Sequence record: PQ471515.1
DNA: 64,000 bases
DNA from: Escherichia phage Turkey3
Direction: 5' to 3' (one strand)
The position numbers and the translations under genes were made by a program. Shown one piece after another: positions 1 through 64,000 of the stretch. Under the pieces are notes generated by a model that was not told the origin of the DNA, made no database searches, and saw nothing but the letters and a program-made list of their open reading frames with translations. Within the stretch, counting starts at the first letter, position 1; each line of letters begins with the position of its first letter.

Positions 1-9
1 ATTGTTAAA

Positions 10-405
10 ATGGTGAACTATGTATTAAAAAACAACACATGGTCACTGCATGATGTACAATTAGAAGATATTGGTGAAGTTAGAGTATTTTGCTATGATG
101 GCGATTTGAACGAAACCACTGATTTGAGTAAATGTTTTAATATTTTTCTTGGTTATGAAATCAATAATCATTTTTATTCATTTGATGTGTATTTTGAACG
201 AGTTAAAATCAGAATTGCTAATGTAAATAGTGATTATTATGACACTAGAATTGAATTGAATTTTGACGATATTGATACTGAAGAAAAATTCTTTCAGTAC
301 AATCTCGTAAACGATCTAAATGGATTGACATTTGAGGACATTAAAGCTATACTTAAAGTTCAAAGATTGATTCCAGAAGAGGTTCTAAATCCCTTTAATG
401 ACTAG
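10..405 (+). CDS. hypothetical protein, FQY-motif paralog family
   Basis: ORF 131 aa; C-terminal motif EEKFFQYNLVNDLNGLT shared with ORFs at 398, 1487, 1912, 16862, 41092. Confidence 0.6.
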   Translation: MVNYVLKNNTWSLHDVQLEDIGEVRVFCYDGDLNETTDLSKCFNIFLGYEINNHFYSFDVYFERVKIRIANVNSDYYDTRIELNFDDIDTEEKFFQYNLVNDLNGLTFEDIKAILKVQRLIPEEVLNPFND

Positions 406-757
406 TTTAATAACTCGTATAATGCAAGATGTTCGTAAGAATCTTCATACTGGTAATTTTGATGATCCTAACATAAAAATATTATGTTATGATGTATTCA
501 CACTGGTACATCCATCAGAATCTAATAATTTATACATAGCATATACTTCTCCTAATATTTTGTATCAATTTGATTTATATAGTACAATGGCTAAGATAAC
601 ATTAGATGTTTCTAAGGAGCCAATTTTTATAGCAGTACGTGATTTTGAGTACACAGAAGAGTCATTATTCCAGTACTCAATGATAAATGACATTGGTGAC
701 TTGACATTAGAAGAGATAAATGTTATAGTTGGTATGTGTCGTTTGATTAATCCATAA
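398..757 (+). CDS. hypothetical protein, FQY-motif paralog family
   Basis: ORF 119 aa; C-terminal EESLFQYSMINDIGDLT motif. Confidence 0.6.
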   Translation: MTSLITRIMQDVRKNLHTGNFDDPNIKILCYDVFTLVHPSESNNLYIAYTSPNILYQFDLYSTMAKITLDVSKEPIFIAVRDFEYTEESLFQYSMINDIGDLTLEEINVIVGMCRLINP

Positions 758-770
758 CTCGGAGCTTAAT

Positions 771-962
771 ATGTTTTTGAATTTGTTATGCTTATTTGGT
801 CGTACATTGGTTCTTGCTATTATTCATACACCTGGTATTCGTAATTATGTTTCTTATGAATTTAAGAAAAATTACCACAACAATACTGAAGTTCGTGCAA
901 CTAAGATGTGCAAAGACTTCAATGGAGATGTTCCACCATTCAAGAAGTACGAGGATGAATAA
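771..962 (+). CDS. hypothetical small protein
   Basis: 63-aa ORF filling an intergenic gap; overlaps an alternative-frame ORF, weak. Confidence 0.35.
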   Translation: MFLNLLCLFGRTLVLAIIHTPGIRNYVSYEFKKNYHNNTEVRATKMCKDFNGDVPPFKKYEDE

Positions 963-1246
963 TGGAATTTATTGTTGCACCTGATGAACTAAAAACATTC
1001 ACGTTCCGAGACAATAACAATTATCCTTATACAAATCATTCATTGAATTCATTGCATGTTATATCAATCATTGCATCTGAATACAGAGACAATCCATGTA
1101 TTGATTTTAAAACCACTGATGGTGAATATACATGGGTAGTTCCGAACGATAAATACAGTTATCAGGGTGCAGTGGAGATCCGCGACTCGATTCTAAAGCA
1201 AATCGAAGATGGACATACTCATCCTAAACTAAACATTCAGTACTGA
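962..1246 (+). CDS. hypothetical protein
   Basis: 94-aa ORF, start overlaps the preceding stop. Confidence 0.55.
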   Translation: MEFIVAPDELKTFTFRDNNNYPYTNHSLNSLHVISIIASEYRDNPCIDFKTTDGEYTWVVPNDKYSYQGAVEIRDSILKQIEDGHTHPKLNIQY

Positions 1247-1259
1247 AATCGTTTAACCG

Positions 1260-1307
1260 GATAGCTTCTAGTCGGTACTGAATTCCTCCTTTTGTCTAGA
1301 AGCTATC
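1260..1307. repeat. perfect 12-bp inverted repeat (GATAGCTTCTAG / CTAGAAGCTATC) with 24-nt loop
   Basis: read directly in the sequence, intergenic. Confidence 0.6.
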
Positions 1308-1438
1308 ACTCTTTTAAAGTATAATGATATCACCCTCATGGTTCATTATATTCATTACCCTCTAACAGTATCTTTTTTATTCCTCTTTGATACTGTATTT
1401 TAGAAGTTGACATTTTTACTTCTACTGTGTTATACTTA

Positions 1439-1470
1439 AGGCTGATTCATTATGAATCGGCCTTTTTTCT
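1439..1470 (+). terminator. rho-independent terminator-like hairpin + T-run
   Basis: GGCTGATTCAT-TATGAATCGGCC followed by TTTTTT; lies inside the N-terminal extension of the 1427 ORF, so the gene likely starts at 1487. Confidence 0.5.
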
Positions 1471-1486
1471 TGTGGGGATTAATGTA

Positions 1487-1903
1487 ATGAATAAAGAAGT
1501 TATTAGTTTAATTGATGAGTATATCAACCAAACATATCGTTTGATATTTTTAAATGAATTTGAGTCCAGAACAACGTATTATTCTGGTGAATATGAGATA
1601 ATGACTGGATCATTTCTTAACGGATACATGGAGTTTTTAGAACAAAGCGATAATGTTTTCATTTCCATATCTGAAAAACATGGTGATGATTATGTTATTG
1701 ATGTATGGCCTAATAAAGTAGAGATTGACACTACAAAGAAAATTGTAATTGATGTGGATGAATCGTTGTATGATTTAACTGAAGATATGTACATGCAACT
1801 AAATTTCGTTTACGATCTAACTAACATAAGTTATTCTAATCTAAGTAAATTATTTTATATTTCTGGTGTACTACATAATAACGTACAACAAAATAAAGGA
1901 TAA
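1487..1903 (+). CDS. hypothetical protein, FQY-motif paralog family
   Basis: internal ATG (MNKEVISL) downstream of hairpin; C-terminal EDMYMQLNFVYDLT. Confidence 0.6.
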   Translation: MNKEVISLIDEYINQTYRLIFLNEFESRTTYYSGEYEIMTGSFLNGYMEFLEQSDNVFISISEKHGDDYVIDVWPNKVEIDTTKKIVIDVDESLYDLTEDMYMQLNFVYDLTNISYSNLSKLFYISGVLHNNVQQNKG

Positions 1904-1911
1904 ACATTTAA

Positions 1912-62283: not shown

Positions 62284-62294
62284 AGGAAAACCAA

Positions 62295-62954
62295 ATGAAA
62301 CTTAATGCACACAGCAAACAATACCTTAAGCACTTTAAGTACCTCAACAGTATTCAAGCAGAATCTATTACATCTGCATATACGTATCACCCAAATGTAC
62401 TAAAGAAACGAAATAAAAAGAAAAAATCCAGAAATGTTCTCGTATCTAAGAACCTCAAATCGTACTTGAAGAAAAATAATATAGCTCTTGCTTTTATTAA
62501 TATCTATAATACTGATTTAAAAGTATTGAGTACTAATACCAGCACAAAAGCACTAAAGAATGCATCTATCTATATACACATGGATAATATCCCGTGCACT
62601 ATAATTCTATCTTTCGGGAATGTATACTTCTTCGGGAATTGTAATAGCACCCATGATATCAGTACTGCACAATTCCAAATCGGAGATATGTACTGCATGG
62701 GTTCAGAAAAAATACACGATAACATGCACTTCTTCCAAAAGCAACGTACTAACGAAACTGATACAGTACTGCAATTCCTCAAAGAACTAGAACACAAAGA
62801 ATTATCCGACGAAGAAGAATTCATGTACAGTACTGTAATCGATAATCCAGGACTCTATAAAAACGCGTACAAACTAACAAAACATGTACAGGAACTTATC
62901 AGTACTGATAAGAAATTTCATCACCTCATTACGTATATTACAAACTATGTATAA
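62295..62954 (+). CDS. hypothetical protein (larger gene embedded in the small-gene array)
   Basis: 219 aa, basic N-terminal region. Confidence 0.55.
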   Translation: MKLNAHSKQYLKHFKYLNSIQAESITSAYTYHPNVLKKRNKKKKSRNVLVSKNLKSYLKKNNIALAFINIYNTDLKVLSTNTSTKALKNASIYIHMDNIPCTIILSFGNVYFFGNCNSTHDISTAQFQIGDMYCMGSEKIHDNMHFFQKQRTNETDTVLQFLKELEHKELSDEEEFMYSTVIDNPGLYKNAYKLTKHVQELISTDKKFHHLITYITNYV

Positions 62955-63132
62955 AGAATACTACATAGATAAACTCCCAATGCATCTACAATACCTTGTA
63001 CCAACAGAACCATTGGGTATAGAAAAAGACTACGAAAAAGACTACTTCGTTAAGTGCACTAAATCCTCGATAGATATTGACGACTATAATCGAGTACTGT
63101 ATCACATCATTTTACTAATATATAAGTACTAA
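62947..63132 (+). CDS. small protein, tandem paralog family
   Basis: start at MYKEYYIDKLPMHLQ; ends YHIILLIYKY. Confidence 0.5.
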   Translation: MYKEYYIDKLPMHLQYLVPTEPLGIEKDYEKDYFVKCTKSSIDIDDYNRVLYHIILLIYKY

Positions 63133-63133
63133 T

Positions 63134-63313
63134 ATGCACAAACATAAAGAATTCTACTTGTCGTACCTTAATTCCGATATAGTAACATCCAATACCTTCA
63201 GTACTAAAATTATCTATAATGAATTAATGAAAGAATGTATTAAAGGTGCTATTAACCCTAAAGATACGTATGACTTGTACTATGCAGTACTAACCCTTGT
63301 TTTCACGAAATAA
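63134..63313 (+). CDS. small protein, tandem paralog family
   Basis: 59 aa translated by hand (MHKHKEFYLSYL ... YYAVLTLVFTK). Confidence 0.5.
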   Translation: MHKHKEFYLSYLNSDIVTSNTFSTKIIYNELMKECIKGAINPKDTYDLYYAVLTLVFTK

Positions 63314-63321
63314 CACATAAT

Positions 63322-63510
63322 ATGAATAACCACAAAGAATACTACATAGATAAACTCCCAATGTATCTACAGAGCCATATACCAAACGTTGCATTGGGAA
63401 TAAAAGATGACGCAAAAACAATGTTCCAAGAATGTACTAAGTACACCCTAATGTTCGAGGATAGAACATATAAACTGTACTACATCCTCGCCCTAATATT
63501 CAAGTACTAA
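63322..63510 (+). CDS. small protein, tandem paralog family
   Basis: 62 aa; MNNHKEYYIDKLPMYLQ ... YYILALIFKY. Confidence 0.55.
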   Translation: MNNHKEYYIDKLPMYLQSHIPNVALGIKDDAKTMFQECTKYTLMFEDRTYKLYYILALIFKY

Positions 63511-63520
63511 AGAGAACAAT

Positions 63521-63703
63521 ATGCATAAAGAATACTACACACAATTTCTCCCCAGTATATTTGAACACTACGCCAGATATAAAGTCCCCCTGGATAACGA
63601 TTTGGCAGTACTGGGATTCAATAACTGCATAGAACGAAGTATAGAAAATAGTAGTAGTTATGACCAGCTATATAACACTATCCTACTTATATTCAGGTAC
63701 TAA
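63521..63703 (+). CDS. small protein, tandem paralog family
   Basis: 60 aa; MHKEYYTQFLP ... YNTILLIFRY. Confidence 0.55.
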   Translation: MHKEYYTQFLPSIFEHYARYKVPLDNDLAVLGFNNCIERSIENSSSYDQLYNTILLIFRY

Positions 63704-63704
63704 T

Positions 63705-63896
63705 GTGTATAAAGAATACTACATAAAAGATTTACCACCGCACCTTCAAGGTAATCTGTTAGAAGATGAACCTCGCGGTATCAATGCACAAAACGATAAA
63801 GTGTACTTTACTATGTGCACTAAAGCATGTATACTAGATTTTGATAGCTACCATCGAGTACTGTATCATGTACTGTACCTAGCTTTCGTGTACTAA
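63705..63896 (+). CDS. small protein, tandem paralog family (possible GTG start)
   Basis: VYKEYYIKDLPPHLQ ... YHVLYLAFVY; the ATG in the family consensus position is out of frame, apparently by a 2-nt insertion. Confidence 0.4.
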   Translation: MYKEYYIKDLPPHLQGNLLEDEPRGINAQNDKVYFTMCTKACILDFDSYHRVLYHVLYLAFVY

Positions 63897-63906
63897 GAGA
63901 ACAATA

Positions 63907-64000
63907 TGCATAAAGAATTCTACTTAAGCCATCTGGAACTAAACTCCCAAATGCTTATACCACTAAAACCAATAGATATCAAGGATAAGAAAAATACCAA
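63907..64000 (+). CDS. small protein, tandem paralog family (3'-truncated by window end)
   Basis: begins MHKEFYLSHLELNSQ. Confidence 0.4.

Follow-up and report, generated by a model that had tools for sequence, protein, structure and literature searches.

AGTACT as a highly iterated palindrome in enterobacterial jumbo phages

HIP1 (GCGATCGC), the highly iterated palindrome (HIP) of cyanobacteria, is over-represented 15- to 300-fold, conserved and quasi-evenly spread, and its function is unresolved (PMC4390886, PMC5861425); what HIPs do in cyanobacteria has been an open question for 30 years. Phages usually lose palindromes to restriction. Here we analyse a 64,000-nucleotide stretch of Escherichia phage Turkey3 (PQ471515.1; hereafter the window), in which the palindrome AGTACT had been predicted by reading the letters to be strongly over-represented. 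The window is 99% identical to Escherichia phages vB_Ec-M-J and fEgEco12 and ∼86% identical to PBECO4, all three being Asteriusvirus jumbo myoviruses of 350–385 kb, and our whole-genome figures refer to a rebuilt fEgEco12 genome of 375 kb, whose commonest hexamer is this Type II restriction target. We find the AGTACT enrichment to be real, strong and apparently undescribed, a highly iterated palindrome in phages that goes against the usual direction of restriction avoidance. No paper treating AGTACT and jumbo phages together was found in the searchable literature, and CAGTACTG, looked for in the literature as an operator already described, turned up only incidentally in a table. Our preferred reading, which is tentative and to which we give somewhat less than an even chance, is that AGTACT is a dispersed recognition signal at the level of the DNA, kept by selection, through which a symmetric protein would mark and organise phage DNA.

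Enrichment, conservation and symmetric flanks of AGTACT

Exact counting found 178 AGTACT and 43 CAGTACTG in the 64,000 bases, where dinucleotide-preserving shuffles (n = 100) gave 21.8 ± 4.3 and never more than 33 copies of AGTACT; the resulting 8.3-fold excess, as opposed to a ratio near 1, bears out the original prediction of strong over-representation. Markov models of orders 0–4 expect 21.8, 21.4, 40.1, 75.7 and 149 copies, the last figure being high because the 5-mers AGTAC and GTACT are mostly pieces of the motif, and T comes after ∼60% of the AGTAC in the window. AGTACT ranks first among the 4096 hexamers of the window (35% GC) and is its sole enriched 6-bp palindrome, which makes it the exception to phage palindrome avoidance that it had been taken to be. 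Window palindromes with at least four G or C are nearly all gone, ∼25 of them being entirely absent (CCATGG 0 versus 10 expected, TGGCCA 0 versus 8.6, GGTACC 0 versus 8), and among the 4-mers GCGC is found 0 times versus 31 expected and GGCC 14 times versus 51; GTGCAC (17) and CACGTG (9) are spared. The density of AGTACT ranges from 0 to 8 per kb across the window, with 7–8 per kb at 60–64 kb and exact counts of 3, 5 and 2 per kb at 15–18 kb, in keeping with the high local density that had been counted by eye around 15–17 kb. None of the 18 one-mismatch neighbours of AGTACT is depleted, including the transition neighbours AGTATT (1.44-fold) and AATACT (1.17-fold), and this rules out very-short-patch-type repair as the source of the sites. 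Neighbours that differ at the outer positions are in fact ∼2-fold enriched, as are the half-sites AGTACV over the whole fEgEco12 genome.

Such an excess could be a by-product of coding, of paralogous repeats or of promoter and terminator modules: the Ser-Thr codon pair AGT-ACT gives 70 sites, and the terminators of an array of RCC1-like genes as well as duplicated early promoters reuse the motif. On a gene map carried over from the nearest annotated relative and supplemented by long open reading frames (ORFs), the sites fall 47/30/42 by frame in + strand genes and 23/4/6 in – strand genes, while 25 sites are intergenic, at 4.4 per kb versus 2.6 per kb in coding DNA. Genes hold 152 sites, whereas shuffles of the synonymous codons of each gene predict 48.0 ± 5.8 and shuffles of codon order 27.7, which rules out codon and dipeptide usage as the cause and settles that Ser-Thr usage does not explain the excess. 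The predicted occurrence in all three frames is confirmed as well, as 70/34/48 sites are seen per frame versus 26/8/14 expected and each frame is 2.7–4.3-fold enriched. The proteins of the window are themselves bent towards AGTACT, with Ser-Thr dipeptides inflated to 169 versus 108 expected and Val-Leu to 155 versus 109. Promoter and terminator contexts together account for only ∼10% of the window sites, the contexts of the sites are diverse, and the enrichment is genome-wide across more than 30 independent genomes. Because of the shuffles, the frames, the intergenic density and this genome-wide spread, AGTACT does not arise as a side effect of coding, repeats or base composition, and we give that explanation practically no chance.

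Alignment of the window with PBECO4, phAPEC6 and UB (∼84.5% nucleotide identity) demonstrated that AGTACT sites are maintained by selection at the DNA level. Between 69 and 76% of the sites are intact across the alignments, compared to 46% of other hexamers, and in codon pairs for the same amino acid the synonymous third positions are identical at a rate of 0.90–0.91 inside the motif versus 0.76–0.77 outside it. Losses (22–31 in the three alignments) are balanced by gains (24–27), and for 38–42% of the losses a new site lies within 150 bp of the lost one, versus 20–24% at random positions. Within regions the spacing is more even than Poisson (variance/mean 0.55–0.87, with about half the expected number of empty 1-kb bins), which is a modest effect, and no periodicity was found in it.

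The 977 unique sites of fEgEco12 carry extended and symmetric flanks, in which position –1 is C in 44% and G in 9%, +1 is G in 47% and C in 8%, T at –3/–4 and A at +3/+4 are favoured (∼40% each), and further out A is favoured at –7 to –9 and T at +8/+9. The consensus A(–7..–9) T(–4,–3) C(–1) AGTACT G(+1) A(+3,+4) T(+8,+9), roughly A-N2-TT-N-C-AGTACT-G-N-AA-N2-T over ∼20 bp, is reverse-complementary out to ±9, and in the window the left flank and the complemented right flank correlate with r = 0.73. Since most genes lie on one strand, symmetric flanks are not expected of an RNA- or codon-level signal; the size and symmetry of the consensus are those that would be expected of a dimeric protein binding the duplex.

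A host protein whose sites resemble this pattern is the nucleoid-occlusion factor SlmA, which occurs in enterobacteria and related bacteria, in line with the hosts of these phages. AGTACT copies would then be decoy or activator sites, and phage DNA spread through the cell would block its division. The 12-bp SlmA site GTGAGTACTCAC has an AGTACT core (PMC3020112), and cells infected with the Asteriusvirus Sharanji become filaments filled with DNA, with no division inhibitor known from this phage (PMC11895373). However, SlmA needs G1, T2, A4, G5 and a purine at position 3 (PMC3020112), whereas in the phages position 3 is C in 44–60% of the sites and G in only 5–9%, GT is unenriched at positions 1–2, and 354 kb of phage DNA hold 0 full sites (GTRAGYRCTYAC); a search of the phage with an SlmA query sequence found no homologue. 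On the flanking bases and the missing full sites we reject SlmA sites, and we consider this account very improbable. Also rejected were operators of TrpR (GNACT-N8-AGTNC, that is, AGTACT 14 bp apart), as only 2 pairs lie 14 bp apart and the spacings peak at 11, 16, 20 and 22 bp, with no peak at 14 bp.

Distribution among phages and a second, unrelated lineage

The fEgEco12 genome contains 1115 AGTACT versus 116.5 expected (9.6-fold), at 1–4 per kb throughout and 6.2–7.5 per kb in both copies of the terminal repeats, which are direct repeats of 21 kb (PMC13070987), and in the adjoining small-gene array. It is this array, in front of the right terminal repeat, that forms the 60–64 kb end of the window, where ∼14 back-to-back ORFs of 180–230 bp (60295–63896) directly precede the repeat and have the top motif density of the window; the fEgEco12 segment homologous to the densest block has 8.1 sites per kb in coding and 9.5 in intergenic DNA. 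Within the terminal repeat of fEgEco12 the density is 11.6 per kb in intergenic versus 4.3 in coding DNA, while the core has ∼2.5 per kb in both. Relative to genes, the sites of fEgEco12 peak right behind stop codons and are sparsest over ribosome-binding sites.

AGTACT tops the hexamer ranking in all enterobacterial relatives sampled, both in PBECO4 (9.6-fold), phAPEC6 (9.3-fold) and UB (9.3-fold) and in other genera, represented by RaK2 (Alcyoneusvirus, 14-fold), GAP32 (Mimasvirus, 19-fold), Serratia phage BF (Eneladusvirus, 18-fold) and Salmonella phage Munch (15-fold). T4 shows no enrichment (1.4-fold); Pseudomonas phage PA5oct, grouped with these jumbo phages by its authors, is depleted (4 versus 13.4 expected, 0.3-fold), and 50 kb of the Xanthomonas phage XacN1 hold 0 AGTACT versus 5.1 expected. 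A 50-kb sample of E. coli K-12 has 3 versus 4.8 expected, and phage DNA is therefore ∼50 times denser in AGTACT than host DNA. KKE7M, an unrelated coliphage with similar GC content, has 0 versus 11.7 expected, which identifies AGTACT as a restriction liability in this host range, and the jumbo phages run counter to the restriction pressure on it. The Mimasvirus XbC2 is also motif-rich (CAGTACTG 13 versus 0.34 expected). It combines low GC and an enterobacterial-type AGTACT signature with Xanthomonas vesicatoria as its recorded host, so that either it made a recent host jump or the host assignment is worth checking.

Scanning IMG/VR for three closely spaced CAGTACTG returned jumbo phages and, in addition, contigs of 31–35 kb with 4–5 AGTACT per kb, which encode a large serine recombinase, a lambda gpA-type terminase, a lambda-family portal, a protease-capsid fusion and lambda-like tail proteins. 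These ∼33-kb elements are prophages in Leclercia sp., L. tamurae and Enterobacter bugandensis, with a more distant relative in Escherichia sp. ESNIH1. An assembled element of 32,657 bp has 144 AGTACT versus 10.2 expected (14-fold), in all frames and between genes, and lacks the same list of palindromes as the jumbo phage (GCGC 0 versus 58 expected), while the E. bugandensis chromosome beside the prophage has 0 AGTACT in 7 kb. The flanks of the prophage sites match those of the jumbo phages (–1 C 60%, +1 G 59%, T at –4/–3, A at +3/+4, A at –7, T at +7). BLASTP and phmmer found no convincing protein common to the jumbo phages and the ∼33-kb prophages; AGTACT with the same flanks thus arose independently, by convergence, in unrelated small temperate phages. 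The elements are integrative and siphovirus-like (e.g. IMGVR_UViG_3300011546_000034), with only ∼32 ORFs, no recognisable replication, lysis or repressor genes and ∼41% GC compared to ∼55% in their hosts; the 32,657-bp element has 3 copies of Chi versus 0.33 expected. The sole short segment conserved between divergent motif-rich prophages turned out to encode a secreted 98-aa protein and not a DNA binder, and was dropped as a candidate for a shared protein.

These distributions also bear on a methylation-linked origin in the manner of HIP1, in which a methyltransferase marks AGTACT or its inner GTAC and methyl-directed repair or a reader creates and keeps the sites. Cognate orphan methyltransferases accompany HIP1 and alternative HIPs (PMC4390886), the jumbo clade has a conserved orphan C5 methyltransferase (PF00145) and a Dam-family enzyme, and orthologues of the C5 enzyme are present in Asteriusvirus, RaK2-like phages, GAP32, CBB and XbC2; the one-base variants of AGTACT are most enriched at the outer positions, as for HIP1, and more than 1000 ScaI-type sites would need protection. 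However, the C5 methyltransferase is weakened as the cognate enzyme from several sides. The methylation that bisulfite detects in RaK2 is reported by its authors to be in CpG context (PMC3622015), whereas AGTACT contains no CpG; a close C5 orthologue is apparently missing from the motif-rich Eneladusvirus and Munch-like phages, as far as hit counts by organism name indicate; KKE7M has the closest outside C5 homologue (50%) yet zero AGTACT; and Pfam detects no methyltransferase in the ∼33-kb element. The absence of depletion of AGTATT and AATACT also speaks against the methylation account. With an enzyme that appears to target a CpG-containing site and a second lineage without any methyltransferase, the proposal that AGTACT is a modification target is not supported, and we regard a methylation-linked origin as improbable.

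A one-strand island and a proposed reader of AGTACT

Just inside the left terminal repeat of fEgEco12, in a part of the genome that the window does not cover, positions 29016–37647 (8.6 kb) contain 0 AGTACT and 46 AGTACA (4.2 expected). All 46 are on the + strand (46:0, with 0 TGTACT) and they occupy every frame and a variety of contexts but keep the C..G flanks, while the adjoining segment 20857–26616 has the opposite variant, TGTACT, at 9 versus 1.3 expected. PBECO4 keeps this island at 84% identity, with 35 of 47 aligned AGTACA kept and only 2 being AGTACT, and its homologous 7 kb again hold 0 AGTACT; Munch and BF have weaker AGTACA-rich zones at the same place. The pattern shows that selection favours a one-strand form of the signal at one location. 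Over most of the genome the half-site variants are balanced, strict orientation is confined to the island (26–38 kb) and strand polarity is absent outside it, so that a Chi-like orientation bias is not found genome-wide.

The motif might be an oriented single-strand one, (C)AGTAC(W), comparable to Chi, a primase site or a polar barrier and read by an enzyme that moves along the DNA; AGTACT would then economically put the signal on both strands, and AGTACA would be used where one direction matters, next to the left terminal repeat. The strand bias of the island and its conservation in PBECO4, the neighbouring TGTACT segment, the weaker zones in Munch and BF and the ∼2-fold genome-wide enrichment of AGTACV half-sites are consistent with this, and Chi, at 23-fold over-representation, implies that these genomes do collect control sequences for host enzymes. 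On the other hand, the G(+1) preference persists downstream within the island, as it would for a duplex site, strand polarity is absent elsewhere, no candidate enzyme is known, and the replication machinery differs between the two lineages, as the jumbo phage encodes a primase of its own, whereas none is recognisable in the small prophage. We consider an oriented signal unlikely, although not negligibly so.

Neutral molecular drive, in which biased mutation, repair or gene conversion generates AGTACT without function, would account for the density peaks in the terminal repeats (6–7.5 per kb), which recombine every cycle, for the highest density of all in their unconstrained intergenic DNA, and for the distorted amino-acid dipeptides, as a drive would cause them. 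Yet a uniform mutational bias cannot give the island pattern, because the conserved island uses a different, one-strand variant, and does so with the same positional conservation. Further evidence against drive is that no one-mismatch neighbour is depleted, that sites are spaced more evenly than at random and lost ones are made up for nearby, that the same flanks occur in two lineages without shared enzymes, and that a close relative of the small prophage is without the motif. The undepleted neighbours, the island and the even spacing disfavour the odd mutational process that had been offered as an alternative to function, and we hold drive to be distinctly improbable.

In our preferred reading of AGTACT as a selected recognition signal, the duplex motif with its weak symmetric flanks (∼20 bp) would be bound by a two-fold symmetric, dimeric protein, whose dense occupancy would label and organise phage DNA, which has 50–100 times as many sites per kb as the host chromosome and is richest in them in the terminal repeats; in early promoters these sites may also act like operators, and terminators may use them as ready-made stems. 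Site and synonymous conservation, local compensation, symmetric flanks and convergence support the part of the original prediction that called AGTACT a functional DNA-level site, and regulator binding, which it named as one such function, is plausible, although no regulator was found. As two unrelated element types have the same motif and flanks with no detectable shared protein, we lean slightly towards a reader supplied by the enterobacterial host cell rather than by an unrecognised small phage protein. Pfam scans of the phage's candidate DNA-binding genes returned no informative domain.

Several observations weigh against a symmetric reader of this kind. A conserved island with only the non-palindromic, one-strand AGTACA is not predicted by a purely symmetric duplex reader. 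Pfam scans, BLASTP and phmmer across the lineages and tests of candidates identified no reader protein, and we infer the binding, the encoder of the binding protein and the benefit of occupancy from sequence. In Atlantibacter, also an enterobacterium, a relative of the small prophages whose terminase is 45% identical carries just 2 sites over 21.8 kb. The motif-rich XbC2 is reported on Xanthomonas, so that there the trait tracks the phage lineage and not the host, and T4 and KKE7M make no use of AGTACT in the same host.

It is also possible, though on balance rather unlikely, that enterobacterial cells harbour an activity, so far undescribed, that binds or processes DNA specifically at AGTACT (TTnCAGTACTGnAA), on which unrelated phages converge by loading hundreds to thousands of sites. 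If this is true, the sites would constitute a 'self-marking code' that tells phage from host DNA 50–100-fold, a phage counterpart of Chi or uptake sequences, and the AGTACA island with its one-strand form would point to a step with polarity, for instance an origin or the direction in which the DNA enters.

Promoter and terminator sites, and comparison with known systems

Occurrence of AGTACT in promoters and in the stems of the array terminators had been predicted and is seen in both (Table 1). The promoter-like sites of the window, with TATAAT or, in one case, TACAAT as the –10 element, have an architecture that is found again in the terminal-repeat early promoters of fEgEco12, where the layouts are fixed: one site abuts the –10, or one overlaps or precedes the –35, or both of these sites are present, 22 bp apart. 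A fixed promoter position is not general, as only 4 of the 178 window sites and 17 of the 977 unique genome sites are in that context. Terminal-repeat early genes of fEgEco12 also have a duplicated promoter-leader module in common (10041–10136, 12775–12857, 17189–17271), in which the –10 element is followed by agtttacatcaagGGGAGAA..TTCTCCCC, which forms a conserved hairpin in the leader, upstream of the ribosome-binding site.

The array terminators are GCCAGTAC(T)-loop-(A)GTACTGGC hairpins with T-runs, ∼12 of which lie behind tandem RCC1-like genes with predicted folds of –12 to –17 kcal/mol, and the array has 22 terminator-like matches versus 8.0 ± 2.9 in shuffles. It comprises 17 tandem paralogous RCC1-repeat ('regulator of chromosome condensation') genes at 39890–60210 on the – strand, with one terminator each, and it turns over quickly, because the number and order of the paralogues differ from those in the 99%-identical vB_Ec-M-J. 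Within the largest motif-free gap, ∼1.1 kb between the HNH-endonuclease gene and a clamp-loader-like gene (35459–36575) have no called gene. Chi is ∼23-fold over-represented in fEgEco12 (34 copies on the + and 14 on the – strand versus 1.45 expected on each), with 10 co-oriented copies per terminal repeat, some of them forming the arms of hairpins CCACCAGC-N4-GCTGGTGG; the window has 3 copies on the + and 4 on the – strand versus 0.19 expected on each.

Table 1. AGTACT features and Chi copies located in the window
Feature	Position	Strand	Details
Dispersed AGTACT, 178 copies (43 as CAGTACTG)	1–64000		exact counts, shuffles
Densest block, 30 sites in 3.6 kb (7–8 per kb), in array of ∼190-bp small genes	60254–63862		adjoins right terminal repeat
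Largest motif-free gap (2.6 kb), HNH-endonuclease gene and unannotated stretch	34025–36659		
Sigma-70-type promoter-like site TTGACA-N9-AGTACT-G-TATAAT	14627–14654	+	motif in spacer, ∼–19 to –14
Promoter-like site, TTGACA-N9-AGTACT-G-TATAAT architecture	18938–18965	+	
Promoter-like site, TTGACA-N9-AGTACT-G-TATAAT architecture	29804–29831	+	
Promoter-like site TTGACA-17-TACAAT	60241–60269	+	AGTACT in spacer
Hairpin CCAGTACT-ATAAT-AGTACTGG, stem of two motif copies, between convergent genes	39862–39882	+	–15.9 kcal/mol, z = –5.5
Intrinsic-terminator-like hairpin GCCAGTACT-loop-GTACTGGC and T-run, behind RCC1-like gene	41750–41768	–	
Terminator-like hairpin, CAGTAC stem	45249–45267	–	
Terminator-like hairpin, CAGTACT stem	47478–47496	–	–16.2 kcal/mol, z = –4.2
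Terminator-like hairpin, CAGTACT stem	48682–48700	–	
Terminator-like hairpin GCTCAGTACTG..GTGCTGGGC	50767–50791	–	
Terminator-like hairpin, CCAGTACTG stem	52930–52957	–	
Terminator-like hairpin, CAGTACTG stem	54187–54210	–	
Terminator-like hairpin ATGCCAGTACTG-loop-TACTGGCAT	56585–56607	–	–17.4 kcal/mol, z = –5.4
Terminator-like hairpin, CAGTACT stem	57836–57854	–	
Terminator-like hairpin ATGCCAGTACTG-loop-TACTGGCAT	59015–59037	–	
Chi (GCTGGTGG)	12472, 18792, 29324	+	
Chi (GCTGGTGG)	46753, 47011, 47266, 58747	–	

AGTACT is a tractable case of a HIP, as the signal is under selection, extends over at least five genera of jumbo phages and arose independently in small temperate phages of the same host family. 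Its reader could reveal a new way of discriminating phage from host DNA, a hijacked host factor, or a layer of early transcription or replication control in jumbo phages that do not form a nucleus. In practical terms, AGTACT is a simple sequence signature by which these phages can be recognised in metagenomes, and their load of it predicts either extreme sensitivity to ScaI or else a protection mechanism.

Compared with the known systems, AGTACT is identical to the central 6 bp of the site read by SlmA, a dimeric TetR-type protein of the same host group, and a blocked-division phenotype links the two, but the outer bases that determine SlmA specificity are unmatched, and partly avoided, in the phage. 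Restriction avoidance concerns the very same word, the target of ScaI/Eco255I-type enzymes, which KKE7M avoids fully; here the sign is reversed, with 8–20-fold enrichment. Chi is likewise a short over-represented signal, one that marks DNA for a host enzyme, and the AGTACA island is Chi-like in its orientation; Chi, however, is asymmetric and orientation-dependent everywhere, whereas AGTACT is a palindrome that no known enzyme reads. With the DNA uptake sequences of Neisseria and the uptake signal sequences of Pasteurellaceae it has in common a density of about one to several per kb, occurrence in all frames, distorted peptides and inverted pairs that serve as terminator stems, and both would be kept by a benefit per copy and not at fixed positions. 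The uptake sequences differ in being asymmetric 9–12-mers that the carrier cell's own competence machinery reads, while a phage genome has no uptake step.

HIP1 and AGTACT are both palindromes enriched about 10-fold or more genome-wide, in coding DNA (all frames) and non-coding DNA, with sites conserved beyond coding constraint, a quasi-even spread and one-base variants biased to the outer positions. AGTACT is unlike HIP1 in occurring in phages and not in cellular genomes, in being an AT-richer 6-mer with weak symmetric flanks, in having no cognate methyltransferase that could be linked to it and a second lineage without one, in its one-strand island, and in the extreme avoidance of other palindromes around it. 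HIP1 is the closest known parallel of AGTACT, with uptake sequences and Chi as looser functional analogues.

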